From a virus (Duplodnaviria > Heunggongvirae > Uroviricota > Caudoviricetes), in IMG/VR virus record IMGVR_UViG_3300028586_000764: DNA of 64,000 nucleotides; one strand, 5' to 3'. The notes beneath the pieces were generated by a model. That model had not been told where the DNA came from, made no database searches, and was given only the letters and a program-made list of their open reading frames with translations. How positions within the stretch are numbered: position 1 is the stretch's first letter; each line of letters begins with the position of its first letter. The position numbers and the translations under genes are program-made. Positions 2,819 through 55,089 of this stretch are shown here, in pieces.

Positions 2819-2845
2819 CATTCTAGCCGCCAGACTTGCGCAAAT

Positions 2846-2877
2846 GAAAAACCCGCCAGACTTGCGTCTGACGGGTT
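2846..2877 (-). terminator. rho-independent terminator of the flotillin operon
   Basis: The minus strand reads cccgtcagac-gcaa-gtctggcggg followed by TTTTT. Confidence 0.8.
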
Positions 2878-2917
2878 GGAATGGATTGGTGAGCCGTGTG
2901 GGCCTCACCTGTAGTGC

Positions 2918-4651
2918 TTAGTTTGCTTCTTGCGGTGCTTCTGGAGCCGGAGCCGAGGCTTCGGCAGCCGAGGCGTTCAGCACGCCGCTCATGCCGACAG
3001 CCGATGCCACCAGAGCGTCCATGTTGCCGCCACCTTTCAGACCGACTTCAGCGAGCAGGCCGTCGACGACGGGCTGGCTGGTGCGATACCGCAGTGCAGC
3101 GGTGACCACTTCGTTGCCCAGGCCACCACCGGCAGCACCGTTGCCAGCAGCGGTACCAGCTGCGCCGGCACCACCAGTCAGGCCACCGACTTCCGCGATG
3201 CGGATGGAGTCGATGTTTTCCAGCGGCTTGACGCTCTGCTCGATGATTGCCGGCAGGACTGCCAGCAGCTGCATCTTGACTTGCTGAGCGATGACTTCCG
3301 GCGACAGCGCGTTTTGAGCTTCGTTTTTCTCGCGCAGTGCGGTTGCAACTGCGTTACCTTCGGCGATGGTCGCTTCGGCGCGCAGCAGTGCTGCGTCCTT
3401 GTCACCTTCGGCACGGGTACGTGCGGCGTTTGCCAGGTCTTCTGCAGCGTTGCGTTCGGCTTCAGCAGCCACCAGCACGGCAGTCGATTCCTTGCGAGCT
3501 TCTTCTTCAGCGCGGACCAGGGTCACGGCCTTGCTACGATTGGCGATTTCCACCTCACGTGCAGTGGTGACCTGTTCTTCAGCAGCGACAGCCAGGGCGC
3601 GAGCCTTAGCAGCTTCCGCTTCAGCAGCAGCTTCCTGCTCGCTCTTCTTCGCCACGGTGATGGCCTGGTCTTGGGCCGCCAGGCGAATCGTCGTTTCGGC
3701 GTCGATTTGCGCAGTTTCCACCGCTTTCTTCTTGGTCGCTTCCGACTGGGCAACGGCACGCTCGGTGTCGATGCGCTTCTGGGCGATGTTCTGGTTGGCG
3801 TCCAGGTCGGCCGATTCCGCACGTTGGCGACCTTCGGCTTTCACGCGTGCGACTTCGGCTTCTTGGGTTGCCGTCATCGTTGCGATTTCCTGTTCGTTCT
3901 GCAGTTCGGCTTCCGACTGGCTACGCTTCAGGGCCAGGGTCTGCTGGGTTGCAGCCAGGTCCTTCTCGGCGATTGCCACGCGGGTATCTTGCTTGGTAGC
4001 GTTGATATCGCGACGACGGGCTTCGGTCTGACGGGTCAGCTGGGCCAGACCTTCGGCGTCGAACGCGTTGTTCGCATCGAAGTACTGGGCTTCGGTCTGG
4101 TTGAGAGCGGTCAGCGAGACCGATTCCAGTTCCAGACCGTTGGTCAGCAGGTCTTCCTTGACGCTGTTCTTCACGGCTTGCGTGAATTCAGCGCGCTTTT
4201 CGTGCAGCTCGTGCATCGACATGGTTCCTGCGACAGCACGCAATGCGGCGACGAACTTCGCTTCGACCTGCGCCTTGAGCTTGACAGGGTCATTGGTCAT
4301 GGCGCCCAGGGTCGTTGCGGCCGTAGAAATGGACGCAGCGTCGGCCTTCACTCGAACGAAGAAGTCCACCTTGACGTCGACTCGCATCTTGTCGCCAGCA
4401 ACGAGAGCATCGTGCTTGCTGCGTTCGACAGACAGCGGCAGCGTCTTCATGTTGACGTACGTTGCCGTATGCAGTCGTGGCAGAACGAAAGCGCCACCGT
4501 TGAGCACCACCTTTTCGCCGCCCACGCCGGTGCGGATGAACGCACGTTCTTTGGACGAGATGATGTAGAACTTCATCACCACCATGCCAACGACGGCCAG
4601 TGCGATGAGAATGCCGATGATAACGCCGGCGGTCGACAGAATTGCGCTCAT
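2918..4651 (-). CDS. yqiK: flotillin / SPFH (band-7) family protein, YqiK-like
   Basis: The 577-aa protein has an N-terminal TM segment and an SPFH domain. It has a long Ala/Glu/Gln-rich coiled coil and a Gly/Ala-rich C-terminus. There is an AGGAG RBS 5 nt from the ATG. Confidence 0.9.
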   Translation of the reverse strand: MSAILSTAGVIIGILIALAVVGMVVMKFYIISSKERAFIRTGVGGEKVVLNGGAFVLPRLHTATYVNMKTLPLSVERSKHDALVAGDKMRVDVKVDFFVRVKADAASISTAATTLGAMTNDPVKLKAQVEAKFVAALRAVAGTMSMHELHEKRAEFTQAVKNSVKEDLLTNGLELESVSLTALNQTEAQYFDANNAFDAEGLAQLTRQTEARRRDINATKQDTRVAIAEKDLAATQQTLALKRSQSEAELQNEQEIATMTATQEAEVARVKAEGRQRAESADLDANQNIAQKRIDTERAVAQSEATKKKAVETAQIDAETTIRLAAQDQAITVAKKSEQEAAAEAEAAKARALAVAAEEQVTTAREVEIANRSKAVTLVRAEEEARKESTAVLVAAEAERNAAEDLANAARTRAEGDKDAALLRAEATIAEGNAVATALREKNEAQNALSPEVIAQQVKMQLLAVLPAIIEQSVKPLENIDSIRIAEVGGLTGGAGAAGTAAGNGAAGGGLGNEVVTAALRYRTSQPVVDGLLAEVGLKGGGNMDALVASAVGMSGVLNASAAEASAPAPEAPQEAN

Positions 4652-4711
4652 AAAAACTCCTAGATGTGGTATTGAACTGTTGTAAAAAACTTGTGCCCGA
4701 AAGCGTATGCG

Positions 4712-5317
4712 TTAGGTGCCGAGTCGAGTGGCGATGTAGCCACCTGCAGTCGGTTCCAGTAACTTGACGGTTTCCCCTAGAGCGAAAGCTCCGTCGTCCG
4801 ACGGGCAAATCATCACGTAGTGGGTTTGACCGTGGCGGTCAGTGAATTTGGCTTCGCCAAAGAGTTGCTTGGTCGCGCAGGGGCTTAGCAGCTCCACTTC
4901 TTGACCAATGAACTCATGGGGCTCGAGTGCAGTGGTGTGAACCACTTTCCACTGCTTGAACGACTTGGCAATCATTCGCAACAGGACGACTGCGCCAGCG
5001 ATTGCGAGCAGCAGGGCCACCACCAATGGCACACTGGTACCCGATGCGAGTTGCCCCACACCTTGCACAGCGACACCGGTGGCGCCAAAGCCGAGCAGCA
5101 ATAACGTGATTGCCGACGACAAGGGCATTTCGCGGATGAATAGCCAGTTCAGCACCGGAGAGTCTGGCAACGCACTGGTGTCGACTATTGAGTCGACCAG
5201 CGGGGATACTCCCGCACCGACCAACATCGATGCCAGGAGCTCGAACACACAAAAGCCGAGCATTGCGACCAGAACGCCAGAAAACACAGCCACGTCTGGG
5301 CTTAGAAAAAATTCCAT
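4712..5317 (-). CDS. yqiJ: NfeD-like membrane protein (YqiJ-like), upstream partner of the flotillin
   Basis: The 201-aa protein has several TM helices plus a C-terminal OB-like segment. It has the classic yqiJ-yqiK operon arrangement and an AGGAA RBS. Confidence 0.8.
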   Translation of the reverse strand: MEFFLSPDVAVFSGVLVAMLGFCVFELLASMLVGAGVSPLVDSIVDTSALPDSPVLNWLFIREMPLSSAITLLLLGFGATGVAVQGVGQLASGTSVPLVVALLLAIAGAVVLLRMIAKSFKQWKVVHTTALEPHEFIGQEVELLSPCATKQLFGEAKFTDRHGQTHYVMICPSDDGAFALGETVKLLEPTAGGYIATRLGT

Positions 5318-5373
5318 GTCTTCGTTTCCTAAAAAGATTCTTACTTGAACAAGTACGCTCTGACTGAGCGTCT

Positions 5374-5396
5374 GTTGGCCTTCTCATACATGTAGC
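5374..5396 (-). promoter_or_regulatory. variant recurrent upstream element (GCTACAT-N5-AGAAGGCCAAC) for the yqiJK-like operon
   Basis: The coding strand reads ttGCTACATgtatgagAAGGCCAACagacg, about 60 nt upstream of the ATG. Confidence 0.35.
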
Positions 5397-5503
5397 AACT
5401 GACTTTATGAAATTCACACAGGAGGTTTTTAGAACCTCAGCATACGTGTCTAAAACGCATCGCTAAATTCCCGTCAATTCTTCCTTCGCGATGGTTTCAA
5501 CTT

Positions 5504-5725
5504 ATGCTGTCTATGTGTCTTGCGGTATTCGGCGTCGTCCTTCTTGGCTCTTGCGCTGTTTTTGCCTTTAAGCGAATTTACTCAAAGAAATCCAACCCCT
5601 CGCCGCGCGTGGACAGCCGATTCTGGTTGGACGTCGCCTTGTATGGCGGAGGCTTCTTGTTGATGTTTTACTTCTTCTTCGGAAAAGCTCTCGCCATCTA
5701 CCTGGGATATGGCGATTTGACCTAA
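5504..5725 (+). CDS. small hydrophobic membrane protein (73 aa)
   Basis: The ORF has two predicted TM segments and a terminator immediately downstream. The RBS is weak. Confidence 0.3.
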   Translation: MLSMCLAVFGVVLLGSCAVFAFKRIYSKKSNPSPRVDSRFWLDVALYGGGFLLMFYFFFGKALAIYLGYGDLT

Positions 5726-5743
5726 GAACGCATTCTCGATAAC

Positions 5744-5772
5744 AAAAAGCCCGGCACGAATGCCGGGCTTTC
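5744..5772. terminator. bidirectional rho-independent terminator
   Basis: The hairpin gcccggca-cgaa-tgccgggc has an A-run on one side and a T-run on the other. It serves the CDF gene on the minus strand. Confidence 0.8.
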
Positions 5773-5774
5773 AA

Positions 5775-6704
5775 TCATGCTGCTTGTCGTTCGCCTACGT
5801 CAGGCTCGAAGAACGAGAATCGCAACTGCGGCACCGTGAATCGGCTTTGCATGCGCTCTTCGACTTCATTGATGGCAAAAACTAATGCCAGGTCCGACGG
5901 CATACGTCGCATTTGCACCTTGAGCGCGACCATGATGTAGGTCACGTAATCCTGGGTAATCATGTTGATGACGTGCTCGACTTCCGGCTGGGATTCGACG
6001 AAAGCGCGAATTTCCGCTTCGAGTACCGGATTAACGGACTCGCCGGCGTTCATACTTTTCACTTCCAACACCACCAGCATCGCGACCACGCACAGCAGCA
6101 CACCTACGCCTATGGTGCCGAGGGCATCGAACACCGGGTTGCCGGTGATGGCCGTCGCCACAAGAGCGAGAAGCGCTATAGCCAGGCCAGCAAGGGCCGC
6201 CACGTCTTCGCTTACGCAAACCAGCAGTGTTGACTGGCGCGTACTACGGAACCATTGCCAGAGTGTCTGAGTGCCACGTTCTTTTGCGGCCGCACGAAGC
6301 GCACCACGAAGAGCGTAACCTTCAGCTGCGACAGCAACAGCCAGTACGACAATCGAGTAGCCCAGGTATTTCACGGGTTCAGGATGCTTGAGCGCTTCCC
6401 AGCCGTGGTGGATAGAGAAGGCGCCGCCTACGCTGAAAAGTAGGAGTGCGACCATCAGCGCCCAGAAGTGCGCGTCACGGCCAAAGCCCATGGGGTGAGC
6501 CTTGGTAGGTGCTTTGCGAGCTTGTTTGATGCCGATGAGCAGTAACACCTGATTGCCGCAGTCAGCAAAGCTATGCAGCGACTCTGCCAGCAGCGAGCTG
6601 CTGCCGGTCATGACGGCCGCGACAGTTTTTGCCACAGCGATGCCGAGGTTAGCGCCAAGCGCAGTCAGAATTGGTTTCAGGGAATTGCCTGAGCTAAGGT
6701 CCAT
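5775..6704 (-). CDS. cation diffusion facilitator (CDF) family metal efflux transporter
   Basis: The 309-aa protein has 6 TM segments, an HSFADCGNQ motif and a C-terminal cytoplasmic domain. Confidence 0.9.
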   Translation of the reverse strand: MDLSSGNSLKPILTALGANLGIAVAKTVAAVMTGSSSLLAESLHSFADCGNQVLLLIGIKQARKAPTKAHPMGFGRDAHFWALMVALLLFSVGGAFSIHHGWEALKHPEPVKYLGYSIVVLAVAVAAEGYALRGALRAAAKERGTQTLWQWFRSTRQSTLLVCVSEDVAALAGLAIALLALVATAITGNPVFDALGTIGVGVLLCVVAMLVVLEVKSMNAGESVNPVLEAEIRAFVESQPEVEHVINMITQDYVTYIMVALKVQMRRMPSDLALVFAINEVEERMQSRFTVPQLRFSFFEPDVGERQAA

Positions 6705-6710
6705 GTAGGA

Positions 6711-6732
6711 GTTGTCCTGGAGATAATAGAGC
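6711..6732 (-). promoter_or_regulatory. recurrent upstream element (CTCTATTAT-N4-AGGACAAC) next to the CDF start
   Basis: The coding strand reads gctCTATTATctccAGGACAACtcctacATG. Confidence 0.4.
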
Positions 6733-6804
6733 TACGTGTAGCGAAGTGCGATTACAAAGAAAAACGCCTCAACCGAAGTTGAGGCGTTGAAATATGGTGC
6801 GAGA

Positions 6805-7926
6805 TTATGCAGCCTTGGCCGTTTCCTCGATAGGGCGCCAGATACGCCACTTTGCGGGGAAGCCGTTAATGCCCTGGGTCAGGAGAACATCCAGCCAGTC
6901 GACGCCCTTCTCACCTTCCGGAATCGGACCGGTTGGCAGATAGATTTCGACAATCTTACCTTCTGCTTCGAGTCGTTCAGCAAGCTTTTCAGCTGCCTGC
7001 AGACCACGCTTGCTGACGTCCAAGTCGGCCCAGATGACGACACGTTTGACGCTATCCGGGATGTGCACCTGCTCGAGCAGCACTGCCGACACACACGACC
7101 AGACTGGCATGCGAGAGATTGCGTGTGCCGCCAGGGCGGTTTCGATACCTTCGGCCAGGCCCAGCGTTTCACCCGCCTGGAACAGCTTGATGGCTGCGCC
7201 GCGCAGCTCACCACAGCGGCTCATCATCTTCTTGGCATCCGGAACCGGAGCCTTGGCGCCTTCCGGCGTCAGGAAGATGCGATGGATGGAGACGATACGA
7301 CCGTCTTTGTCCTTGATGGGGGCCAGAAGACACGGGAATTTTCCGTAGTTCTTCTTCTCCTTACCATGCATGTAAGTCAGGCCTTCGTGCGAGCGCAGTG
7401 TCTTAGGCATGTTATCTTTCCAGATGCCACGCGATGCCAGGTAGGACTCCGCGGCCGAACCCTTCAGGTCTTTGGACGTGGTCCAGACCTTGCGGATGCG
7501 GTCGTAAGCTCCGGCGAAGTCCACTGGCGGTGCGACGACGGTAACAGGCTTTCGAGGCACGGGAGCAGGAACACTGCTCTCGCCATCCAGCCAGGCTGCA
7601 ACTTCACGGATGGCATCTTTGATGTCATAGCCGCGAATCCAGGCCAGCATGCCAAAACCGCTTGGCTGAGCGCCGCACGAGTTGCAAATACCGCCGCCAG
7701 ACTCCGGATAGTCCTTAAACAGCCGAAAGCCGTTGCCGGTCTTGCCGCCATGGATGGGACAGGTTACGTGGTGTGGAGCCTTGGCCATCGCTTCGGACAG
7801 CTCGGGGGCCAGGTCTTCGAAGATGTACGGCCACTTTCCCGCTGCGTCTGCACGCAGCTGCGGAAAGGGCTTGTATTGCTTGTATGTTGAGGTTGGTTGG
7901 GTCACGGTGCGTCCGTTTCTAAACAA
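6805..7926 (-). CDS. DNA primase (CHC2 zinc finger + Toprim domains), phage/plasmid type, no helicase domain
   Basis: The zinc finger is CPIHGGKTGNGFRLF...GGGICNSCG. Toprim-like LGLAEGIETALAA and VVIWADLD follow. The TTG start is tentative. Confidence 0.8.
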   Translation of the reverse strand: MFRNGRTVTQPTSTYKQYKPFPQLRADAAGKWPYIFEDLAPELSEAMAKAPHHVTCPIHGGKTGNGFRLFKDYPESGGGICNSCGAQPSGFGMLAWIRGYDIKDAIREVAAWLDGESSVPAPVPRKPVTVVAPPVDFAGAYDRIRKVWTTSKDLKGSAAESYLASRGIWKDNMPKTLRSHEGLTYMHGKEKKNYGKFPCLLAPIKDKDGRIVSIHRIFLTPEGAKAPVPDAKKMMSRCGELRGAAIKLFQAGETLGLAEGIETALAAHAISRMPVWSCVSAVLLEQVHIPDSVKRVVIWADLDVSKRGLQAAEKLAERLEAEGKIVEIYLPTGPIPEGEKGVDWLDVLLTQGINGFPAKWRIWRPIEETAKAA

Positions 7927-14774: not shown

Positions 14775-15143
14775 TTAGCGTGTCACAAGTGCGATGTCCC
14801 GCGGATTCTTTTTCTGCAGGTCAGCGATGGTCTTGGCGATTTGCTCATAGCGCACTTCACGGTCCACCGACAACTCGATAGACGTATCCGGCTTAATGCG
14901 GCGTGCCAGGTCGTCCATCGACACCGGGCTCATTTCCACCATTAGCTGGCCGCTTTCTAGCAGCGAAACCGACAACGTCTTGGCGACCACGGGCGCGCCG
15001 GCTAAGTCAGTCTGCGGCAAGTCGACCGGCAGTCGCTTGACGAACATCGGCATGGCCAGGAGCACGACGACTAGCAGAATCAGCAGGACGTCGACCAGCG
15101 GGGTGATATTAACGGCGGCCAGGGGCTTGCGTTGGTTGTCCAT
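14775..15143 (-). CDS. exbD: ExbD/TolR family biopolymer transport protein
   Basis: AVNITPLVDVLLILLVVVLL is the typical ExbD/TolR N-terminal TM segment, followed by a periplasmic domain. Confidence 0.85.
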   Translation of the reverse strand: MDNQRKPLAAVNITPLVDVLLILLVVVLLAMPMFVKRLPVDLPQTDLAGAPVVAKTLSVSLLESGQLMVEMSPVSMDDLARRIKPDTSIELSVDREVRYEQIAKTIADLQKKNPRDIALVTR

Positions 15144-15516
15144 CGAAGGGCTCCGGAAGGAAGTATTGAGACAGCGCGGCGTCCAGCTCAGGGAACGTAT
15201 GCTTATCGAAAAATTCGTTTTTTAGTCGGGTGACCGCTGCGGACGCTGCCGCAGGACGGGAATGCCGGCGAAGCGCCTGGCGAAAGCGTTGCATGGCAAC
15301 GTCGTACCAAGCGTCTTCCGTATTAACGCCCTGCTCCATCAGCGCTTCGACCTGGGCTGGTGCCATGTCGGACAACTCAAGCCATGCTGTCATCGCCGCG
15401 AGCAACTCCTCGATGCCCTGCGGGCGCGTGAGGTCACAAAAGATGTTCAGGCTCTGGCCACCGATGTTCAGCGGCGGCAGCACGGCCGTATGGGCGAAGG
15501 TGGCTGGGCTCTTCAT
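15109..15516 (-). CDS. hypothetical protein (135 aa) inserted between exbB-like and exbD-like genes
   Basis: The ORF overlaps the exbB-like stop and the exbD-like start. No family is recognised. Confidence 0.5.
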   Translation of the reverse strand: MKSPATFAHTAVLPPLNIGGQSLNIFCDLTRPQGIEELLAAMTAWLELSDMAPAQVEALMEQGVNTEDAWYDVAMQRFRQALRRHSRPAAASAAVTRLKNEFFDKHTFPELDAALSQYFLPEPFDGQPTQAPGRR

Positions 15517-15953
15517 TTGAACGACCTCAGCGCACGATTGTGCATCAGCTGTAGCTTGCGCTGCATTAGGTTGTACGCTACAGCGGCGGGCACAGCAGAA
15601 GCGAGGCCGACTAGCGTAGAATTCAGGGCGGTCGCAATTGGGCCTGAGATGAGCGTGATATCGACACCGCTACCAGACATGGCGCGCAGCGCTTCGATAA
15701 TGTGCATCACAGTGCCCGCCAAGCCTACGAATGGCGCGGTCGATGCGATGACAGCCAACATGGGAATACCCGCTTCAAGTTTCTCAATGACTTCGTCCAG
15801 TTTGCTCTGGTCGACGCCCACCTGCTCTTGCAAGCTGCGACGGAAGACAAGCTTCGGCGCCCACAGCTCCAGCGCTTTGTAGAGGATGAGTCCGATGGTC
15901 AGTGCGACAAGCGCCACCAGGAGATAATCGACGTAAATTGCAAGGTCTTTCAT
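15513..15953 (-). CDS. exbB: MotA/TolQ/ExbB proton-channel family protein
   Basis: The 146-aa protein has 3 TM segments and a GLAGTV...ALNSTLVGLASAVPAAVAYN pattern. Confidence 0.8.
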   Translation of the reverse strand: MKDLAIYVDYLLVALVALTIGLILYKALELWAPKLVFRRSLQEQVGVDQSKLDEVIEKLEAGIPMLAVIASTAPFVGLAGTVMHIIEALRAMSGSGVDITLISGPIATALNSTLVGLASAVPAAVAYNLMQRKLQLMHNRALRSFK

Positions 15954-16724: not shown

Positions 16725-17336
16725 TTACTCCTGCGAGTTACGGCGTGCGCGGAAGCGAATCACGCCGAAGCCCAAGACCAGCATGCCTAATGCCAGCAGT
16801 CCGGTCTTCATGGCCTGGTCTCGATGAGACTGTACCCAAGAAAGCCAGCTCGCCGGATTTTTCAGGTCAAAGCCGACCGCGACGACAGGCGCAGCTGGGG
16901 CAGCTGCAGGCGTAGTGGTGGGCGCGCTTTTTTGCTCGTTGAGCGGGTCGACACCTGCCTTGGCAGCCTGTGCCATCGTGGCGTATGTCATAACGGGCTG
17001 GCCTGCAACGGGAGTGCTGGTCGAGGGGGTCCCGGCCGGGTTGGATGCGGCAGCTTTATTAGTCGGGTCCGAGGCAGGAATCATCGGCATTCCCGAAGGG
17101 GACGTTGCAGTGCCTGTCGTGGTCGTGGCCGTAGGCGTCGAAGCCGCGGCCGGGGCCGAAGTTGGCGCGGGCCGCTCTTTCACCAGAAGGGGCATTTGAA
17201 CGTCGGCGCGCTTAGCCGGCAGCGCATCTGGCGTGGGCACGTCGAACTTTTTCACATAGGGTTGAGCCTGGTCGGCGGCGCTGGCGCTTACGCACGTCGC
17301 AAGCAGCGCGGTCAACAAAAGGTTTCGCATTGGCAA
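16725..17336 (-). CDS. secreted Pro/Thr/Ala-rich protein with C-terminal TM anchor and basic tail
   Basis: The signal peptide is MRNLLLTALLATCVSASA. The protein is low complexity and ends in ...TGLLALGMLVLGFGVIRFRARRNSQE. Confidence 0.65.
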   Translation of the reverse strand: MPMRNLLLTALLATCVSASAADQAQPYVKKFDVPTPDALPAKRADVQMPLLVKERPAPTSAPAAASTPTATTTTGTATSPSGMPMIPASDPTNKAAASNPAGTPSTSTPVAGQPVMTYATMAQAAKAGVDPLNEQKSAPTTTPAAAPAAPVVAVGFDLKNPASWLSWVQSHRDQAMKTGLLALGMLVLGFGVIRFRARRNSQE

Positions 17337-17406
17337 ACTACTCCAGAAAGGGACATATCAGCCCTGTATAGGAGGTAGTCTTTAGCCGCTTTTTAGGGCA
17401 CCAATG

Positions 17407-17450
17407 AAAAAGTCGCCTTCGTATGCTGGGGAAGCATACGAAAGCGACTT
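17407..17450 (-). terminator. rho-independent terminator (15-bp stem)
   Basis: The minus strand reads gtcgctttcgtatgc-ttcccca-gcatacgaaggcgac followed by TTTTTC. Confidence 0.8.
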
Positions 17451-17470
17451 GGAATCACATCGAGCGTAGG

Positions 17471-18436
17471 TTAGCGGTAGGTACGCTCGAGACGGTCACG
17501 ACGGGACGTGAAACGCGAGAAGGCGTCGATTCGGTCCACCGGCACGGAGAACGAGCGATTGCCGAAGGCATTCGCGCGCAGCCAGGCCATTTCATCCTCG
17601 AACTGTTCCAGAGGTACTTCAATCCACCATGCCTTTTCCGAGTTGGGCTTGGTGCCATCCGACCAGCGGTACCCACGGTCCTTCAGGGCGTCCTTGACGT
17701 CATACGACGCACCGACTGCCCAGATGCGGCGGGCCTCCGTCTGGAAGTTGGACAGCACGTGCGCCAGCGGCGTACGGCCGTCACCGTCAACCAGTGGCTG
17801 GTCCAGTGCATGCAGCAGTGCCAGGCAGTCGGCATCAGCGCGGTGGGCTTCATAGTAGAAGCCCATGCGGAACGCGATGAATTCCAGCTTCGCACTGGCC
17901 ATGCCCGAGCTTTCCCAGTCAACCTGCGACAGCGAGCAAGCCCAAGGCTTACCTTTCATAAAGGGGAAGCGGCGCTCGCAGACTTCACGGTCAAAACGCG
18001 AATTGTGCGCAATGATGAAGTCCGACATTTCGACGGTCAACTGGACGGCGTCGTCGTTGATGCGCTTACCCTTGACCATGTCGTCGGTGATTCCGTTGAC
18101 ACGGGAGGCAGCTTCCGGAATCGGCATGCCGGGGTCTTCCAGTTCATTGAAGCGGTCCAGGGCGCTCAGCACACGGCCGGTAATGCGGTCGTAAGCAAAC
18201 GTCACCATGCCCAATTCGACAATGAGGTCGACCGAAGCGTCTTTGCCGGTTGTTTCGGTGTCAAGCACCGTAGCGATGCCAACGTCGGCACTGACCGGCA
18301 CGCGGTCGGGGCGGAACAGGGTTTCGGCGTCGAAACGGCGCAACACACGGAACTGCTGGCTGTCCTCAAGGGCTTTTGCCATCTGTTCCAGCGAAGTCGT
18401 AGGGGCTGCAACAGGGGCGTCCAGTAAATCTTGCAT
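17471..18436 (-). CDS. DEDDh 3'-5' exonuclease (DnaQ-like) with C-terminal extension
   Basis: The exonuclease motifs are VLDTETTG, IIAHNSRFD and HRADADCLALLHAL. The start at 18436 has an AAGGA RBS. The upstream part of the long ORF has non-protein-like composition. Confidence 0.85.
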   Translation of the reverse strand: MQDLLDAPVAAPTTSLEQMAKALEDSQQFRVLRRFDAETLFRPDRVPVSADVGIATVLDTETTGKDASVDLIVELGMVTFAYDRITGRVLSALDRFNELEDPGMPIPEAASRVNGITDDMVKGKRINDDAVQLTVEMSDFIIAHNSRFDREVCERRFPFMKGKPWACSLSQVDWESSGMASAKLEFIAFRMGFYYEAHRADADCLALLHALDQPLVDGDGRTPLAHVLSNFQTEARRIWAVGASYDVKDALKDRGYRWSDGTKPNSEKAWWIEVPLEQFEDEMAWLRANAFGNRSFSVPVDRIDAFSRFTSRRDRLERTYR

Positions 18437-19336: not shown

Positions 19337-21838
19337 ATGAAACTCGCAAATAGCCACGCTTCCGGAAATATCGTTGCCAGTGAGGGCATTCAGACCACGA
19401 GCGCGTTCGGCATCGCCCGCACGCCGCACATGTTCAACATCCTCTCCAGCGGCCTGTATTCCGATAAGATTGCGGCGGTACTACGCGAAATTAGCTGTAA
19501 CGCGATGGACGCCCACATCATGGGCGGTACTCCCGACAGACCTTTCCAGGTAAAGCTGCCAACGTCGCTCGACCGTTCCTTCCACGTGAAGGATTGGGGC
19601 CCAGGCCTGAACGACCAGGAGGTGCGCGAACTGTACACCACCTATGGCTGGTCGAGTAAGCAAAACAGTGACGACGTTACCGGTGCCTTCGGCCTGGGCT
19701 CGAAATCGCCGTTTGCGTACACGACGCAAAACGAAGAAGACAGCGATGGCTTCACCATCGTCTCGACAAAAGATGGCTTCAAGCGCATCTACACCTGCCA
19801 CATCGGTGAAGATGGTGCGCCGGCTATCAGCCGCCTGCACGAAGGCCCGGCCGACGCCGACTGGCCGCATGGCGTGATGGTCACCTTCCCGGTGCAGACG
19901 CGCGATATCGCTGAATTCCATCAGAAAGCCGTGGAAATCTATCAGTGGTTCCGCATCAAGCCGGAAATGCTCGGCCTGAATGGCCAGCTGTCGGCGCCCG
20001 AGTTCGACTTCCAGGGTTCGTTCTTCTCGATGAAACGCAAAGACAACGGTTCCGACCGTGGCGCTAGCGTCATCACCGGCAACGTGCGCTACCCCATCGA
20101 ACAGAGCCGCCTGGGCAGCCTGACGCCTATCGAAGAAGCGTTGCTGACGTCGAGCATCCACATGCACTTGCCAATCGGCCAAGTCATGATGACGCCGTCG
20201 CGTGAAACGCTGCAGTACACCGAGCAGACCAAGAGCAACCTGAAGCGACACCTCGCGGCCGCGGCCAACGAAGTTGCTGAACGCGTGCGTGAATACGTGA
20301 TGACGCCGGAGCCGACCCGATGGGCATGGTTCAAGAAGATTCACTCGTACCACGCATCCCTGCCTCACGGCATTCAGTATCGTATCGAGAAGTTCCTGGA
20401 AGCTGCCGGCGTGCCTGAAGAAGAAATCAAGATGGTGTCGCAAGCGGTGAAAGAGAACACCATCGAAGTACCCGGCTGGGTCGGCGATGGCATCGGCGGT
20501 CCGGCCGTGGAGTTCGAGTTCAACGAAGACGGCACGTACAAGCGTGACGCTCAGGGCATGCGTGTTGTGGTGCCGCGAGAACACAACTTCGGCGCCCGTG
20601 TCTATCTGTACGGATATGACAAGGCTCGTGATGCCGTCAGCCGCCGTGAGTTCATCAACGGCCGTGTGGCCAAAGGTGGCGACAAGCATGGCCGCGTGCA
20701 GCTGAGTTTCCTGTCGAGCATCCACGTGTACTACGCGGACGACAAACTGGCTGACCAGCGCGTGCGCGCGGCGGTGCGTGATGGCGAATGCAACTACGCA
20801 ATGTTGGTCACACCTTGTAAAGGCACGCCTCAAGCATATGCGGCAGAGTACGCCGCACGTCTCGTGGGCAAAAAAGGCCTGGACGGTGTACCCTCGTTCG
20901 GCGTCTCCACACTGGAGATTCCGAGTGCGGTCGAAGAAGCGCGTGAGCGTCGCCGTCGTTTCAAGGAACTGGGCCCACGCGCTACCTTTGCAGACCACGA
21001 AGTGCACTACCTGAGCCTGAACGGCAACATGGCCCGCACCACCCTGGGCGAACTGGAGGACAGCGACCTGTTCTACATGACGGCTACCAAGCTCAACGAA
21101 ATTCGTAAAGGCACTGTTCGCAACAAAGCCGACACGTACGACCACAGCTTCCCCGGCAGCTATCTCGGCGAAGTCGTGCGCAGTATCCGCATCATCGTAG
21201 AGGAACTGGGCTTGCCGGTCTCCGGAATGGTGTTGATGCCAACGGAAGGCGCTGCCCGCCGACTGAAACTGCCGGAACAGGGCTTCAAGCCCTTCCTGCC
21301 GTATTTCGTCGGGGAGCTGAAGGCCAACCGTACGCGCTGGGAAGCACTGACCGCGACGGTCGACCGTACACCACGTGTGGACATGTCGTCGCAGTACAGC
21401 GCCAAGCAGTATGGCTGGCTCGGTACGCTGGGTCATGAGATGCATCGCAACAGCGAGTTCTGGCAGCACTTCGAGGCCGAATTCTCGACCTCGCCGGTAA
21501 CGCATGCCGTTCGGGAATTCGTCAAGAACTCGGACAGCAGCAAGGAAAAGGAGGCAGTGCCGGCCAATCCTGTGTTGCAGGCACTGCAGCTGGTGGCCAC
21601 TCACCTGACCAATCACGGTCTGCCTGAAACGTCGGTGAAGCCGCTGTCGTACTACCAAGTGCGCAACGTGTTCGAGGAGATGGCACCTAGCTTCGAGATT
21701 ATCAACCAGGACGCCATGTGCAACTGGATGCGCGACAGTGACAACCATGAGCACGCCCTGTCGACGTTCCGCATGGTTCTGCAGCTGGACGGGCTGACGG
21801 ACGAAACGAGCGGTCGCACGCTTCGCCTCGTCGCATAA
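19337..21838 (+). CDS. rIIA: rIIA-like protein (N-terminal GHKL/Hsp90-like ATPase domain)
   Basis: FNILSSGLYSDKIAAVLREISCNAMDAH...KDWGPGLND...GAFGLGSKSPFAYTT aligns with T4 rIIA [28 protein letters not shown]...RDFGPGMSD...GGFGLGSKSPFSYTD. Confidence 0.9.
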   Translation: MKLANSHASGNIVASEGIQTTSAFGIARTPHMFNILSSGLYSDKIAAVLREISCNAMDAHIMGGTPDRPFQVKLPTSLDRSFHVKDWGPGLNDQEVRELYTTYGWSSKQNSDDVTGAFGLGSKSPFAYTTQNEEDSDGFTIVSTKDGFKRIYTCHIGEDGAPAISRLHEGPADADWPHGVMVTFPVQTRDIAEFHQKAVEIYQWFRIKPEMLGLNGQLSAPEFDFQGSFFSMKRKDNGSDRGASVITGNVRYPIEQSRLGSLTPIEEALLTSSIHMHLPIGQVMMTPSRETLQYTEQTKSNLKRHLAAAANEVAERVREYVMTPEPTRWAWFKKIHSYHASLPHGIQYRIEKFLEAAGVPEEEIKMVSQAVKENTIEVPGWVGDGIGGPAVEFEFNEDGTYKRDAQGMRVVVPREHNFGARVYLYGYDKARDAVSRREFINGRVAKGGDKHGRVQLSFLSSIHVYYADDKLADQRVRAAVRDGECNYAMLVTPCKGTPQAYAAEYAARLVGKKGLDGVPSFGVSTLEIPSAVEEARERRRRFKELGPRATFADHEVHYLSLNGNMARTTLGELEDSDLFYMTATKLNEIRKGTVRNKADTYDHSFPGSYLGEVVRSIRIIVEELGLPVSGMVLMPTEGAARRLKLPEQGFKPFLPYFVGELKANRTRWEALTATVDRTPRVDMSSQYSAKQYGWLGTLGHEMHRNSEFWQHFEAEFSTSPVTHAVREFVKNSDSSKEKEAVPANPVLQALQLVATHLTNHGLPETSVKPLSYYQVRNVFEEMAPSFEIINQDAMCNWMRDSDNHEHALSTFRMVLQLDGLTDETSGRTLRLVA

Positions 21839-21858
21839 CGAAACTACCGCAATTCTTC

Positions 21859-21887
21859 AGCCCCGGGGACTTCCTCGGGGCTTTTTT
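21859..21887 (+). terminator. rho-independent terminator
   Basis: The hairpin gccccg-gggacttcct-cggggc is followed by TTTTTT. Confidence 0.85.
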
Positions 21888-21952
21888 CGTCGCACGAGTC
21901 GTCAGCACCCTGCATTTTAGAAGGAATCCAGGCGCTGCATGTAAATCTCGTT

Positions 21953-21994
21953 GCTATAGGTTAAGCGGGACTGTACTGGCCCCGCTAGGCACAT
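21953..21994 (+). promoter_or_regulatory. variant upstream element (GCTATAG ... AGGCACAT) for rIIB
   Basis: The sequence is ttGCTATAGgttaagcgggactgtactggccccgctAGGCACATttcAAGGAGaagaatcaATG. Confidence 0.35.
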
Positions 21995-22011
21995 TTCAAG
22001 GAGAAGAATCA

Positions 22012-23151
22012 ATGAGCTATATCCGCACCCTCGGTGGTATTCACATGGTCATCGACGGCAAGCCCATCGCGGTTGCCCAAAGTGACAAGCATTTCCAATC
22101 GGTCCTCGAGGCGCTCAAGCGCAAAGCGACGGATGCGGAAATTCTCGACATTCTCGACTCCGAGAAACGTCGCATGGAAGCCGCGGTGCAGGTCGCGCCG
22201 GGTATCGAAATCAAAGGCGGACAGCTGTACTACCAGAACGAGCCGGTTGCCGGCGTGCTGGGCGAGCGCATGATGCAGATGGTCGATGAAGGCTTCGACC
22301 TGACGCCAATGGCAGCCTTCCTGCGAAACCTGATGGAAAACCCGTCCAAGCGCGTGGTCGACCACCTGTACGGTTTCCTGGAATACGGCAAGAACGCCAT
22401 CACCGAAGACGGCTGCTTCCTGGCTTACAAGGCGGTTACCGCCGAATACAAGGACATCTACACCGAAACGTTCGACAACTCGGTCGGTCAGGTCGTCAAG
22501 ATGCCACGCAACCGCGTCAACGAAGACCCTAACCAGACCTGCAGCGACGGCCTGCACGTGTGCAGCTTCGAGTACCTGGATTCGGCGTATGCCCGCAACA
22601 GCGGCCACGTGATGATTTGCAAAATCAATCCGGCCCACGTCGTTGCAGTCCCGACGGACTACAACAACACCAAGATGCGCGTGTGCGAATACGAAGTCAT
22701 GGGTGAGCACGTCGACTACTACCAAAGCAAGAACGACACGCTGTCGGCAACCTCGGTGGCCACCAGCACCAACTCGAACTTCCGCGTCGACGTCGACTAT
22801 GGCAGCGGCTATGGCCATGAAGACGACTTTGAACGCCTGTCGGAAGCTGCGGACCACATGGAATCGCTGCTGGACCGTGACGACGTCAAATCGGTGCGCG
22901 TGGTCAACATCAAGACGGACGCTGTGGTGGACGAGCAGGACAACCCTGACTACGACGATGGCGAAGGCAGCGACGACGACGAGTCGTACACCATCTTCGG
23001 CATCCAGTCGGGTGGCGGTCGCATCCAACTGGAAGATGGCTTCGACAGCGTCAACGATGCTGTCATGGAAGCACTGGAATACGAGAACGGCGTCTACGTC
23101 CGTATCGAAATCGTCGACCAGGACGACAAGGTCGTCAAGACCCTGAGCTGA
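22012..23151 (+). CDS. rIIB: rIIB-like protein
   Basis: IKGGQLYYQN...MENPSKRVVDHLYGFL...ITEDGCFLAYKAV...TFDNSVGQVVKMPRNRVNEDPNQTCSDGLHVCS...KMRVCEYEV aligns with T4 rIIB. The C-terminal half is acidic. Confidence 0.9.
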   Translation: MSYIRTLGGIHMVIDGKPIAVAQSDKHFQSVLEALKRKATDAEILDILDSEKRRMEAAVQVAPGIEIKGGQLYYQNEPVAGVLGERMMQMVDEGFDLTPMAAFLRNLMENPSKRVVDHLYGFLEYGKNAITEDGCFLAYKAVTAEYKDIYTETFDNSVGQVVKMPRNRVNEDPNQTCSDGLHVCSFEYLDSAYARNSGHVMICKINPAHVVAVPTDYNNTKMRVCEYEVMGEHVDYYQSKNDTLSATSVATSTNSNFRVDVDYGSGYGHEDDFERLSEAADHMESLLDRDDVKSVRVVNIKTDAVVDEQDNPDYDDGEGSDDDESYTIFGIQSGGGRIQLEDGFDSVNDAVMEALEYENGVYVRIEIVDQDDKVVKTLS

Positions 23152-23314: not shown

Positions 23315-23602
23315 TCATAGACCGTAGTATCGACCTGCCGACGGCTCATGCGAATCTTTCGCACGCCACCATTGCCACCAGGCGGGAGGCGCCCACTTAG
23401 CTGCTTTAGCCGCCTCGTTGCAAAGACGGATAGCCTCCTCTTCGTTGGGTGCGAATGCGTGAATTACGTCCGGCCTGCTGAACGGGGTCCTTGTGAACAG
23501 GATGCAGGCGTCGTAACCTTTTCTATTTGGTGCTAGAGACAAGGCTAGAGGGCTCCACGAGCTTTTTCTGGGCAGGGCGTAACTTGTTGGCGATTTTGAC
23601 AA
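23315..23602 (-). CDS. hypothetical protein (95 aa)
   Basis: The ORF has a dedicated terminator. It overlaps the 3' end of the DUF4031 gene by about 80 nt and the start is uncertain. Confidence 0.4.
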   Translation of the reverse strand: MSKSPTSYALPRKSSWSPLALSLAPNRKGYDACILFTRTPFSRPDVIHAFAPNEEEAIRLCNEAAKAAKWAPPAWWQWWRAKDSHEPSAGRYYGL

Positions 23603-23822
23603 TGTCTCGGGGCCTCACCGCATGTGCCCCGGCTGCCAAAACTTTCTCTCGCTGCTCGTCCGTTACGTCGTAGTGAGGGTGTCGGGCACCGCGATGAAAC
23701 GACGACCTCGCAATGCCCTGCGCCTGGGCGAACGTGTGCAGCTCTTCAAGGCTGTCCGCGGTCATGTGGAAGCGAGGCGTACCCCTTAAGATGATTGCCG
23801 CGTCATCGACATATACCGCCAT
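23523..23822 (-). CDS. DUF4031 family protein
   Basis: The DUF4031-like pattern is MAVYVDDAAIILRGTPRFHMTADSLEELHTFAQAQGI...FHRGARHPHYDVT. There is an AAGGAG RBS 7 nt from the ATG at 23822. Confidence 0.7.
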   Translation of the reverse strand: MAVYVDDAAIILRGTPRFHMTADSLEELHTFAQAQGIARSSFHRGARHPHYDVTDEQREKVLAAGAHAVRPRDIVKIANKLRPAQKKLVEPSSLVSSTK

Positions 23823-23826
23823 ACTT

Positions 23827-24687
23827 TCACTCCTTTTCCAATAGCCTGCCACGGGGCACATCATACCGCTGCCAGAAGCCTCGGAAGATTTCTTGTTCTG
23901 CCGTGACGCGCTTCATCATCGGGCAAGCGAATCGAATAACCAGCGTATGCGACTTCGAGTCCGTCGACTGCCACAGGACTTTTGGCTGCGAACTTGGAAG
24001 GTCCACGAATTCCACACCTTCAATACGTTCGAGGTGGGCATCGGCTTTAACCTGCCAGCCGGACGTCGCGGCTTCAGCCGCATCGAGAGCAGCTTTCTCA
24101 GCTTTCTCGAAGTCTACGTCGTAAGGGACCACGATAGGCAGAAGGTCGACGATGTACTCGCCGGTGGCACTGGAATTACGCACCGGCTGATTGAGCACTG
24201 CACTATTGGGCATGGACAGAGTCTTGCCCGTCAGTTGGTGAGCAGTACCAGTCTCTGCCAGCGTAGTGGTAAAGACATCGATGTCGATGACTCGCCCCTC
24301 TTTCCCTGCGATTTCGATGAAGTCACCCACTCGGTAACTGCGCGAAGTCGTAATCATCACGTAGCCCAGGATGCACATCAAAAGCTCTTTGGACACAAGA
24401 AGGATGGCGCCACCAACTGCAGCCAGGGACAGCATCAGGCCTGCCAGCTTGGTGGCCCAAATAGCAATGACGATGAACACCATCGTGACCCAAACGATGT
24501 TCTTGGCGTGTACGAGCTTTTCACGAGTACGCGATGCGTCCTGGCCGTTACTCGTGCGCAGGAGGAATCGGCCCCAGAGGCGAGTAATCATCACGGCCAG
24601 GCCGATGGTGATAGCCGTGGCAACGATGCGGCCGAGTTCGGTCGCATAATAGTTCTGTAAGACTGCCAGGATGGATTTCAGAGTCAT
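23827..24687 (-). CDS. small-conductance mechanosensitive channel (MscS family)
   Basis: Three TM segments are followed by the MscS beta domain GDFIEIAGKEGRVIDIDVFTTTL...LSMPNSAVLNQPVRN. Confidence 0.85.
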   Translation of the reverse strand: MTLKSILAVLQNYYATELGRIVATAITIGLAVMITRLWGRFLLRTSNGQDASRTREKLVHAKNIVWVTMVFIVIAIWATKLAGLMLSLAAVGGAILLVSKELLMCILGYVMITTSRSYRVGDFIEIAGKEGRVIDIDVFTTTLAETGTAHQLTGKTLSMPNSAVLNQPVRNSSATGEYIVDLLPIVVPYDVDFEKAEKAALDAAEAATSGWQVKADAHLERIEGVEFVDLPSSQPKVLWQSTDSKSHTLVIRFACPMMKRVTAEQEIFRGFWQRYDVPRGRLLEKE

Positions 24688-24696
24688 GGATTGCGG

Positions 24697-25218
24697 TTAG
24701 AAGGTAGGAACAGTAAAGCCTTGAGCAGCAAAAAGCGCGCGGTCAGCTACGACAACGGCGGCAACGCGCGGACAAAGCTCGCGCCAGTGGCATGCGAAAT
24801 GCTCTTTGTGTCTGGGAAGGTCGGCGAAAGACCGGTGCACTTCGGCTTCGAGGAAGTGACGGTCATGCACAGCCCAATGTTCAACACAGATGTACTCGCC
24901 GACCACGGCCTCGTTATTGAGGCGCTTGAGACGTTTGTCCGGCGCCAGGCGCGTCATGCCAACCTTGAGAAAGTCCGGTGTCACCGGGTTGGCGACAACG
25001 TACAGATGGCCGTGATTTTTCTTCCAGAGGGCTGCCAGTGACGCGTGCGCAAAATCCGTCCATTCGTCGGCTAGAACGTGTTCTCGGATAGCACGGGCGA
25101 CGTCAGTTTTGCCGGCGCGGATGGCTCGAGCGAGCAATCGGCCATGGGCGAGCGTGTCCTGTGCTGTAAAGGCACTGAACAGGCGCGTAAGGGTTTGATT
25201 GGATACAGAGGGTTGCAT
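24697..25218 (-). CDS. T5orf172 (GIY-YIG-like) domain protein
   Basis: GHLYVVANPVTPDFLKVGMTRLAPDKRLKRLNNEAVVGEY...EAEVHRSFAD is T5orf172-like. The start at 25218 has a weak RBS. Confidence 0.65.
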   Translation of the reverse strand: MQPSVSNQTLTRLFSAFTAQDTLAHGRLLARAIRAGKTDVARAIREHVLADEWTDFAHASLAALWKKNHGHLYVVANPVTPDFLKVGMTRLAPDKRLKRLNNEAVVGEYICVEHWAVHDRHFLEAEVHRSFADLPRHKEHFACHWRELCPRVAAVVVADRALFAAQGFTVPTF

Positions 25219-25334
25219 CCAATTATGTAGCAAGTTGACTTTATCCCAAAGCACTGGCTAACCGATTGCTGCTGCGGACGAGTCGGCGTTGCCTAGACAA
25301 CGTTGAAGATACTTTAATGAGTATAAAGCGCCAC

Positions 25335-25362
25335 GCTATACCGGGAGGACCGCGGACTATAC
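25335..25362 (+). promoter_or_regulatory. recurrent upstream element (GCTATAC-N4-AGGACCGC, then CTATAC)
   Basis: The sequence is cacGCTATACcgggAGGACCGCggaCTATACgtcg, about 50 nt upstream of 25413. Confidence 0.4.
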
Positions 25363-25412
25363 GTCGTATGACCGTCTCGGCATATCACTATTCACACGAA
25401 TCAAGAGGCGCC

Positions 25413-31719: not shown

Positions 31720-31739
31720 GCTATAGGTGAGAGGACATG
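31720..31739 (+). promoter_or_regulatory. recurrent upstream element (GCTATAG-N5-AGGACATG) for DNA polymerase
   Basis: The sequence is ctaGCTATAGgtgagAGGACATGgg, about 55 nt upstream of 31793. Confidence 0.45.
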
Positions 31740-31792
31740 GGACGTGGATATACGTCCTTTCAATTTTTAGCAACGAGAGGAGATTTACCTTT

Positions 31793-48323: not shown

Positions 48324-48389
48324 GAGTCTTTCCTTTCACAATCGCGAAGGTTCCGAGCTCCCAATACGTATTGGGTCCGGAATGCGGTG

Positions 48390-50724: not shown

Positions 50725-50816
50725 CCCGCAGTTACCCGCGACGCATGTCAGAGTAGGCTACTCTCGACGGAACGAGAGGTTTCCCTAACCAAAAAGATGG
50801 CCTGAAACAATTGCAA

Positions 50817-54308: not shown

Positions 54309-54337
54309 TTGGCAAATGCTTATCGCTGTGCTATAAT
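54309..54337 (+). promoter_or_regulatory. canonical sigma70 promoter (TTGGCA-N17-TATAAT) for the TerD gene
   Basis: The sequence is TTGGCAaatgcttatcgctgtgcTATAAT. It contrasts with the GCTATAC-type elements elsewhere. Confidence 0.6.
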
Positions 54338-54989: not shown

Positions 54990-55089
54990 GCAACTAAGCG
55001 CCCGCGCTAACCAATGCCGGCTAGCATCTGCTAAGCCGGCATTTTCCTATTTAAGGCCCTGCGTCCAACTCACACTTAACGGTTAAATC

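Follow-up and report, generated by a model that had tools for sequence, protein, structure and literature searches.

Flotillin, CDF, MscS and Ter genes on a probable giant extrachromosomal element related to Variovorax megaplasmids

The DNA analyzed here (the window) is a 64,000-nucleotide stretch classified as a tailed virus (Caudoviricetes; IMG/VR record IMGVR_UViG_3300028586_000764), and it carries four sets of genes typical of bacterial envelope-stress functions: a flotillin with its NfeD partner, a metal transporter of the CDF family, an MscS channel, and a TerD gene followed by a TerD-vWA gene (Table 1). The initial annotation, made from the letters alone, had located these genes and suggested that they are expressed as part of a phage program, possibly stabilizing the envelope of the infected cell. 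All of them are indeed real and intact, as judged by Pfam and, for MscS, by Foldseek. Their setting appears to be different, in that the closest cultured relatives of the surrounding DNA are replicons of about 800 kb in Variovorax, and no virion gene was found in the related loci that we sampled. With moderate confidence, we take the window to be part of a giant extrachromosomal element of the Comamonadaceae, of megaplasmid type and with a phage-like backbone, in which some of the envelope genes are backbone genes and others are accessory cassettes.

Table 1. Genes and sequence features of the window, in window coordinates (L numbers denote related loci)
Feature	Coordinates	Strand	Evidence or remark
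Intrinsic terminator ending the NfeD-flotillin operon	2850-2877	-	12-bp stem with 7 GC pairs, then T-tract
Flotillin, YqiK-type SPFH protein, 577 aa	2918-4651	-	Pfam Flot 1.5e-32, Band_7 4.9e-11
Short NfeD/YqiJ partner, 201 aa	4712-5317	-	Pfam YqiJ_N 11-113, YqiJ_OB 136-194
2.9 kb block: small transmembrane (TM) open reading frame (ORF), NfeD, flotillin, terminator	2819-5743	-	Absent from L006 and L007
Weak box variant before NfeD: GCTACAT, 8 nt, AGGCCAAC	5374-5396	-	79 and 64 nt from the start codon, atypical
Small ORF between the two cassettes, 73 aa, two TM segments	5504-5725	+	No Pfam family match; missed in the initial annotation
Terminator hairpin after CDF, boundary of the two cassettes	5741-5770		Conserved in L003, L004 and L006
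CDF-family metal transporter, 309 aa	5775-6704	-	Pfam Cation_efflux 7e-32
CDF cassette (boxes and ORF), 977-nt presence/absence polymorphism	5779-6755	-	Replaced by 19 nt in L003 and L004
CDF promoter-like boxes: GCTACAC, 17 nt, AGGACAAC	6711-6742	-	GCTACAC 38 nt and AGGACAAC 14 nt from the ATG
Primase terminator hairpin with TTTTTCTTT tail	6763-6788	-	With the CDF boxes, a composite terminator-promoter unit
Toprim/DUF7146 primase, backbone gene bordering the variable slot	6805-7926	-	Pfam; 62% identical to the toprim protein of pPBL-H6-1
ExbD (14775-15143) and MotA/ExbB (15513-15953)	14775-15953	-	Pfam; missed in the initial annotation
rIIA-like (19337-21838) and rIIB-like (22012-23151) genes	19337-23151	+	PHROGs 1e-103 and 6e-70; box A before each
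Operon of T5orf172 (24697-25218 or 25254), MscS (23827-24687) and DUF4031 (23523-23822)	23523-25254	-	Pfam
Near-consensus sigma-70 promoter of TerD	54309-54337	+	TTGGCA-17-TATAAT, upstream TG, 11/12 positions
TerD (54414-54989) and TerF-like TerD-vWA (55090-56394)	54414-56394	+	Pfam

The flotillin has its Band_7 domain at residues 30-213 and its Flot domain at residues 414-538, both above the Pfam gathering score. Topology prediction gives a single TM-like segment at the N-terminus (residues 8-26), the middle region (residues 216-430) is rich in alanine (27%) and glutamate (14%), and a sequence comparison with the PDB at E ≤ 0.001 matched no solved structure. The NfeD partner has three predicted TM segments and no ClpP-like protease domain, and is thus of the short type that consists of a TM domain and an OB fold. 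As the 60-nt gap between the two genes contains no terminator, they probably form one transcript, and the flotillin has no upstream element of its own. Homologues of the small TM ORF next to them were found in three related loci (L003, L004 and L008). In IMG/VR, flotillin is encoded by 17 viral contigs, nine of them of 180-543 kb, and an NfeD homologue lies immediately upstream in 15 of the 15 viral loci where this could be tested. The pairing is also kept in four further related loci (L002, L005, L010 and L011), in the cultured 469 kb Sinorhizobium jumbo phage Phosso (PV764938.1, L013) and on the Variovorax replicon pPBL-H6-1. Genes for XpaC and TelA directly follow flotillin in nine of the 15 IMG/VR loci (L017-L021, L024, L027, L028 and L030) as well as in Phosso, where the order at 355001-359181 is yqiJ(NfeD)-flotillin-xpaC-telA and the YqiJ homologue is annotated merely as ‘hypothetical protein’. 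The literature that we searched contains no account of NfeD-flotillin operons in phages, nor of phage-encoded MscS or CDF; SPFH proteins are merely listed in some phage annotations.

The CDF protein scores 89.5 bits against TIGR01297 (cutoff 82.35) and reaches no NCBIfam equivalog threshold. Its TM2 motif HSFAD, which aligns with the DSFAD metal site of Shewanella YiiP (the H/D-xxx-D site A), is invariant across 28 family members. The subfamily-invariant motifs HSxADCxN and (G/S)EDxAAL are both retained, the latter standing in TM5 in place of the usual HxxxD and therefore non-canonical. Alignment to solved structures ends at residue 127, and Pfam detects no ZT_dimer domain in the protein.

For MscS, the Pfam match is confined to the beta domain (MS_channel_2nd, 40 bits). 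Three TM segments are predicted, the AlphaFold model has a mean predicted local distance difference test (pLDDT) score of 86, and the top 50 Foldseek hits in the PDB are all MscS-family channels with a probability of 1.0 and full-length alignments of about 270-283 columns. The model thus confirms a predicted full MscS fold of TM helices, beta domain and C-terminal alpha/beta domain. MscS begins 9 nt past T5orf172, the gene upstream of it, and DUF4031 comes after it. Beside this operon, a Schlafen/AlbA_2-domain protein (25266-26768, + strand) is divergent from T5orf172 (GIY-YIG-like; 24697-25254, - strand). T5orf172 gave weak PADLOC matches to the candidate defense families PDC-S57 and PD-Lambda-1, and PADLOC matched none of the cargo genes to a defense system.

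The Ter pair consists of a TerD protein (Pfam 3e-79) and a TerF-like protein with vWA-TerF-like (8e-50) and TerD (1.8e-25) domains. No gene for TerC, TelA, TerB or PRTase/HAD adjoins the pair, and the neighboring ORFs have no Pfam family match; TelA and TerC (the latter in L010) are carried elsewhere in relatives. TerD homologues are present in 126 phage records. Ter genes are known in jumbo phages, where a role against superinfection or stress has been proposed (PMC7824862), and TerD operons have been described in Jug phages (PMC12880540).

In line with the initial annotation, the recurrent upstream element of the window is real. It comprises a box A, (T)TGCTAYA(C), about 38-42 nt before start codons, and a box B, AGGACAAY, about 23-29 nt before them. 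Exact GCTATAC occurs in 13 copies, all 13 of them in intergenic DNA, which makes up about 22% of the window, and 12 of the 13 lie 34-78 nt (mostly 38-42 nt) upstream of a start codon on the same strand. TGCTAYA or GCTATAC together amount to 28 copies (27 intergenic) compared with 12.8 in simulated sequence, and AGGACAAY to 11 copies compared with 2.5 expected. Box A may be read as an extended -10 element (tG-C-TATAC) without a -35 element.

It had been claimed that most of the envelope genes carry this element in place of host-type promoters, which stands for CDF and, weakly, for NfeD-flotillin, but not for MscS or TerD. The two positions given for it, 6711 and 5374, are those of box B copies before CDF and NfeD. 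In the related locus L006, at about 75% nucleotide identity, the CDF gene has a canonical GCTATAC and an unchanged AGGACAAC separated by a diverged spacer, which supports the view that CDF, at least, would be driven by the element's own promoter type. The weaker boxes before NfeD are retained in L004, which is 90% identical, while the bases between them differ, and on pPBL-H6-1 a copy of AGGACAAC is located 60 nt upstream of NfeD. As an internal operon gene, MscS has no box of its own. The absence of host-type promoters was wrongly asserted for Ter, since TerD has a near-consensus sigma-70 site, the only such strong site of this type in the 64 kb window; its -10 region overlaps a box A variant, TGCTATAA.

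Other candidate motifs were considered and discarded. The most enriched word in the window, TTTTTCTTT, was rejected as an upstream or promoter element as it is the T-tract of intrinsic terminators. ACAYGTA, found upstream of both NfeD and CDF, has scattered matches only and is not recurrent. ATAAAGTCAnnTTGCTACAT, common to the upstream regions of NfeD and T5orf172-MscS, was dropped because it has two copies only; the pattern has at least one match in 25 of 100 shuffles and is unconserved in L004. The same two regions (5390-5410 and 25225-25245, both on the - strand) share ATAAAGTCA-n(1-2)-TTGCTACAT, again in two copies only and with the GTCA part unconserved in L004, and this sharing is probably due to chance or a recent duplication.

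Related loci reveal a hyperplastic slot downstream of the primase, in which CDF and NfeD-flotillin are separate cassettes, each set between terminator hairpins. L003 and L004, whose flanks are 88-90% identical in nucleotide sequence, hold NfeD-flotillin only, and L008 (flanks about 85% identical) holds both cassettes. In L006 and L007 (about 75% identical) the CDF gene is at the same site and the 2.9 kb NfeD-flotillin block is replaced by 27 nt flanked by two terminator hairpins. The junctions of the 977-nt and 2.9-kb indels all fall at terminator hairpins, and nine units in which a terminator is followed by a box occur in the window. The absence of CDF from L003 and L004 is most simply explained by deletion, since even the most distant relative has the gene and the 19-nt scar may hold remnants of it. 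A 13-nt direct repeat, CAAGTCTGGCGG(G/C), was also noted at 2825-2861 (- strand). The flotillin terminator has one copy as its 3′ arm, and the second copy lies a further 16 nt downstream, where it borders the 2.9 kb block lacking in L006; the repeat may be a recombination scar.

The nature of the carrier is indicated by synteny with cultured replicons. At the DNA level, megablast matched the window to nothing among phages or plasmids. Over its full length, however, the window rIIB protein shares 50% identity with a protein encoded by four replicons of 801-839 kb (pPBL-H6-1, pSRS16-1, pPBL-E5-1 and pWDL1-1) of linuron-degrading Variovorax, and in a scan of genome contigs with rIIB the only close relative was in Variovorax WDL1. 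Altogether, 24 window genes map in order to about 27 kb of the megaplasmid at 32-69% amino-acid identity, and the collinear set includes a RecD-like helicase, YbaB, a 5′-3′ exonuclease, the toprim primase, an RVT-like protein, ExbD/ExbB, a 3′-5′ exonuclease, rIIA, rIIB, MscS and the DNA polymerase PolA. On pPBL-H6-1, too, MscS lies directly beside rIIB; the rIIA and rIIB proteins are 40% and 50% identical to those of the window, and ExbD and ExbB 62% and 58%, in the same order. The upstream boxes are shared as well, in the forms GCTATAS and AGGnCAAC, at the orthologous primase, rIIB and PolA genes, and 15 of the 19 box copies in the megaplasmid region are intergenic, where intergenic DNA makes up 15%. 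At the primase the boxes read GCTATAG, 5 nt and AGGTCAACT, and for rIIB and PolA the GCTATAG variant is used in both elements. The megaplasmid also has its own NfeD-flotillin pair (52% identity), with the genes for TelA and a vWA protein about 4 kb away and with Wadjet, chaperone-usher pilus and transporter genes as neighbors. The envelope genes had been described as embedded among phage replication genes, and their neighbors are phage-like (rIIA, rIIB, PolA, primase and exonucleases), but the same backbone is found on these cultured megaplasmids.

Two long contigs bear on the size of the element. The window MscS is 100% identical to a protein on a contig of 810,191 bp, and the syntenic relative L006 lies on a contig of 1,229,481 bp (JGI 3300046810 Ga0495660_0000002, 1,086,411-1,103,340). 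For both contigs, a concatemer or misassembly is possible. The publication on the Variovorax replicons, which calls them ‘tRNA-carrying megaplasmids’, describes repB-parAB, F-like tra/trb genes lacking a relaxase, a full tRNA array, CRISPR-Cas I-E and a GC content lower than in the chromosome; the replicons are 99% identical across four strains (PMC7313664). The element in question would be about 0.8 Mb or more in size. It falls between the phage and chromosomal readings of the locus, and whether its lifestyle is that of a plasmid or of a phage-plasmid is uncertain.

A number of observations weigh against a megaplasmid-type element. Membership in the megaplasmid family is carried by one collinear module, since the 64 kb window itself contains neither rep/par or tra genes nor tRNAs or CRISPR. 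The promoter function ascribed to the boxes is deduced from position and conservation. Several features are typical of large lytic phages, namely rIIA/rIIB, T5orf172, an intein-like insert in PolA, families known only from PHROGs and cassettes that resemble the promoter-early stem-loop (PeSL) cassettes of T4-type phages. The closest match of rIIA is a protein in a 595 kb uncultured ‘huge phage’ record, and true jumbo phages (Phosso and the IMG/VR contigs of 180-543 kb) also bear NfeD-flotillin.

These observations would fit a genuine huge phage or ‘megaphage’, either lytic or a phage-plasmid (pseudolysogen), whose membrane genes act during infection by stabilizing the envelope over a long latent period, by delaying lysis together with rIIA/rIIB, or by excluding superinfecting phages. 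We consider this alternative unlikely but substantial, because only a small part of each element is visible. It gains from the exonucleases and DNA-polymerase exonuclease subunits, from the phage-only PHROG of a protein that matches a phosphoenolpyruvate (PEP)-utilizing enzyme domain, from a group II intron, from the roughly 60% of window ORFs without a Pfam match, and from the dense terminator-promoter cassettes comparable to T4-type PeSLs (PMC2839356). Cultured Phosso and the 17 IMG/VR viral contigs show NfeD-flotillin, often with XpaC and TelA, in a viral setting, and Ter genes are a known jumbo-phage feature (PMC7824862). The catabolic, segregation and transfer genes of the closest cultured relatives are harder to accommodate: these replicons, 99% identical to one another, persist stably in four strains, are described as megaplasmids, and bear catabolic transposons, repB-parAB, tra/trb, Wadjet and chaperone-usher pili. 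Their tRNA arrays and CRISPR count in favor of a phage, as both occur in huge phages too. Pfam and PHROGs revealed no capsid, portal, large terminase or tail gene in the window, and precomputed Pfam annotation no virion gene in about 200 kb of sampled related loci, which is a small part of an element of at least 0.8 Mb. Nor did searches with flotillin, rIIA and MscS recover the lineage from IMG/VR: single-protein pattern scans gave none for flotillin and one 36% relative for rIIA, and MscS had none by IMG/VR profile scan or by tblastn against 50,697 phage records. Finally, a review states that no tailed phage above 1 Mb has been reported as of September 2026, genomes of that size being so far limited to Nucleocytoviricota (PMC13598248).

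A further reading is a giant phage-plasmid hybrid family of the Comamonadaceae, which we regard as a rather doubtful, speculative possibility. Such a family would comprise the element of the window, the 810 kb and 1.23 Mb contigs and the Variovorax ‘megaplasmids’; its members would replicate as plasmids and derive from huge phages or still form virions; and they would share an ‘envelope-management’ set of rIIA-rIIB-MscS, ExbB/D, NfeD-flotillin with TelA/Ter, and CDF, partly conserved and partly swapped as promoter-terminator cassettes. Were a hybrid or tailed-phage origin true, the 1.23 Mb member would be the first genome of tailed-virus type above 1 Mb, a record size.

A further alternative concerns the cargo itself, which could be recently captured host genes (morons), passively carried and without a selected role for the element. 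We find this improbable. In its favor, CDF is present or absent among relatives of about 90% identity, the nearest named homologues all belong to Comamonadaceae or Burkholderiales, and a CDF homologue at 70% identity occurs in a contig of a Ramlibacter metagenome-assembled genome. Yet the G+C content at third codon positions (GC3) and the codon adaptation of every cargo gene fall inside the element's range (|z| < 2), indistinguishable from backbone genes, with flotillin and TerD among the best-adapted genes of the element in codon usage. Relatives of CDF at 96% and 87% identity occupy the same site, and since a CDF gene at that site, with conserved promoter boxes, is present in the 75%-identity relative, its absence from L003 and L004 looks like a loss. 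The protein has also retained its subfamily-invariant residues, and the group at about 70% identity includes a large (105 kb) contig of the same kind as the window's, not a chromosome, on which no virion genes were seen. Relatives of flotillin lie on contigs of up to 454 kb and are 97%, 77% and 61-65% identical to it; their neighborhoods vary except for an adjacent NfeD. Flotillins of named bacteria (Caldimonas, Rhodoferax, Variovorax and Burkholderia) reach 51-56% only, the nearest about 54-56%. MscS follows the same pattern, being at most 48% identical to its counterparts in named Betaproteobacteria. In none of the loci examined are NfeD and flotillin separated, MscS stays beside rIIB down to 47% identity, and many cargo relatives at 60-97% identity are on large contigs where no virion genes were seen. 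The phylogenetic check that the initial annotation had proposed thus does not bear out recent capture, which we reject on composition and phylogeny; the identity gradients, trees, conserved partner genes and GC3/codon usage favor long residence.

A chromosomal prophage or genomic island with module boundaries between cargo and replication genes, which the 1.09 Mb position of L006 on a contig the size of a small chromosome (1.23 Mb) might suggest, is very improbable, and we reject it given the intact envelope genes within one mobile element, the same promoter and terminator signals across all modules, the lack of housekeeping genes, integrase and tRNA in 64 kb, the syntenic element backbone in the 17 kb sampled on the 1.23 Mb contig, the different context of a true bacterial flotillin in Rhodoferax (DnaG and gamma-glutamyl transpeptidase nearby), and the separate Variovorax replicons.

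Taking the carrier to be a giant, megaplasmid-type element, the membrane genes fall into two groups. Backbone genes whose position is kept across the family are MscS beside rIIB, and ExbB/ExbD; accessory units are CDF, NfeD-flotillin with its small TM ORF, and TerD/TerD-vWA. CDF and NfeD-flotillin would be gained and lost as whole units, probably via recombination at the composite terminator-promoter units in a PeSL-like manner. CDF would be transcribed from the family promoter type, (t)GCTAYAS as an extended -10-like element without a -35 together with AGGACAAY, and NfeD-flotillin as a single transcript from a weak variant of it; MscS is likely co-transcribed with T5orf172, and TerD may be transcribed by the host's sigma-70 RNA polymerase. 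Judging by their families, NfeD-flotillin could provide an SPFH scaffold for inner-membrane microdomains, MscS could relieve turgor and CDF could export divalent metal ions, and TerD/TerF may be part of a sub-membrane stress and exclusion system of the kind proposed for jumbo phages (PMC7824862). Together, these proteins might buffer the envelope of a cell that carries a very large element, and possibly exclude competitors. The linkage of flotillin with TelA/XpaC and of MscS with rIIA/rIIB suggests a common theme, namely protection or control of the envelope under about 1 Mb of foreign DNA, or exclusion.

The protein families themselves are known, Ter on giant mobile elements is documented, and flotillin is common plasmid cargo, with homologues on 325 plasmid records. 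Because Ter genes are documented in jumbo phages and plasmids and flotillin occurs on hundreds of plasmids, the host-like envelope genes are ordinary cargo, and because the closest cultured relatives of the giant element are Variovorax megaplasmids, the reading that fits these genes best is one of unremarkable accessory cargo, part of it swappable. Three points seem worth carrying forward. First, the link between a ‘phage-looking’ lineage and the Variovorax megaplasmids calls for caution, as a region that reads as ‘phage’ by its rIIA/rIIB, PolA, T5orf172 and PeSL-like cassettes is the backbone of megaplasmids, and it offers, in cultured Variovorax, a host amenable to experiments for a family of 0.8-1.2 Mb elements known otherwise from metagenomes. 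Second, the family-wide candidate promoter type (GCTAYAS with AGGACAAY) is directly testable in Variovorax strains. Third, the NfeD-flotillin(-XpaC-TelA) module, kept together and often arranged as a yqiJ-flotillin-xpaC-telA operon in many huge phages, and present on a megaplasmid as well, points to a selected role for SPFH scaffolds in cells harboring giant mobile DNA.

Further window genes encode exonucleases, DNA-polymerase exonuclease subunits, a dUTPase, an adenosine deaminase, the RecD-like helicase and YbaB. The family A DNA polymerase PolA (31727-35149, + strand; 1140 aa) has an insertion at about residues 380-812, with matches to insertions that many unrelated phages have in ribonucleotide reductase and other genes. 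This insertion is probably an intein containing a homing endonuclease; the Variovorax homologue falls short of the window protein by about 330 aa. A complete group II intron is present at 48389-50779 (- strand; Rfam D1-D4 113 bits, D5-D6 58 bits), with an ORF at 48464-50224 that has reverse transcriptase, maturase and HNH domains, and a palindromic pair of GCTATAC boxes lies just upstream of it, at 50983 and 51017. The PEP-utilizing enzyme-like gene (1322-2773, + strand; 483 aa) borders the variable slot and is kept in L003, L004, L006 and L007; the C-terminus of its product matches the mobile domain of such enzymes and the phage-only family phrog_11532 (2e-52). Relatives carry other envelope genes, including TatA/TatC in L006 (13266-14521) and, in L010, TerC and an M48 (HtpX-like) peptidase (17156-18031 and 20504-21265). 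L009 and L010, contigs of 105 kb and 200 kb that bear CDF or NfeD-flotillin, also encode large hybrid sensor histidine kinases of 1373 and 1113 aa (L009 1-499; L010 1-448) with PAS, HisKA, HATPase and receiver domains.

Several known systems resemble parts of this arrangement. The Variovorax megaplasmids are similar in replicon size to the element family of the window, but protein identity is only about 50%, GC content is 62.5% compared with 57% in the window, and insertions extra to the window add about 37 kb between the shared genes. These insertions include CDF, NfeD-flotillin at this site, the Ter genes, the group II intron, dUTPase and adenosine deaminase; the flotillin of the megaplasmid lies about 175 kb from the shared module. 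The Pseudomonas megaplasmids pMPPla107 and pBASL58 of about 1 Mb (PMC6482414) offer a likeness in type only, being replicons of 0.9-1 Mb in which most genes are hypothetical and GC content is lower than in the chromosome, with numerous tRNAs, their own replication and repair genes, CRISPR and membrane or efflux cargo.

At the level of the cassettes, the PeSLs of T4-type phages (PMC2839356, PMC4122927) likewise have composite terminator/promoter motifs around accessory genes, with indels that end there. The PeSL promoter is of the strong sigma-70 early type and its cargo consists of small ORFans, whereas the putative promoter of the window is a GCTAYAS box without a -35 element and the cargo consists of large, functional, host-like genes. 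For the window, recombination at such motifs and mini-circles would be hypothetical. E. coli yqiJ-yqiK and other bacterial NfeD-SPFH operons (e.g. in Rhodoferax) have the same two-gene layout, in which a short NfeD (TM domain and OB fold) precedes a flotillin built from N-terminal anchor, SPFH domain, Ala/Glu-rich coil and Flot domain. The window pair differs from them in lying on a mobile element behind a variant of the element-type promoter, in a flotillin whose identity to proteins of named bacteria does not exceed 56%, and in a far deeper set of relatives on large and viral contigs. Phosso and the huge phages of IMG/VR (genomes of 180-543 kb) share the same NfeD-flotillin pair at 37-47% identity, but in the window no Ter-related gene adjoins the pair and the Ter genes are 50 kb away. 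Lastly, the Ter systems of jumbo phages (PMC7824862) and Jug phages (PMC12880540) likewise combine TerD with a TerF-type vWA protein on a giant mobile element, and are highly transcribed there; the window has two Ter genes only, without TerC, TelA or biosynthetic genes, and these stand behind a consensus host-type promoter on a carrier that may be a plasmid.

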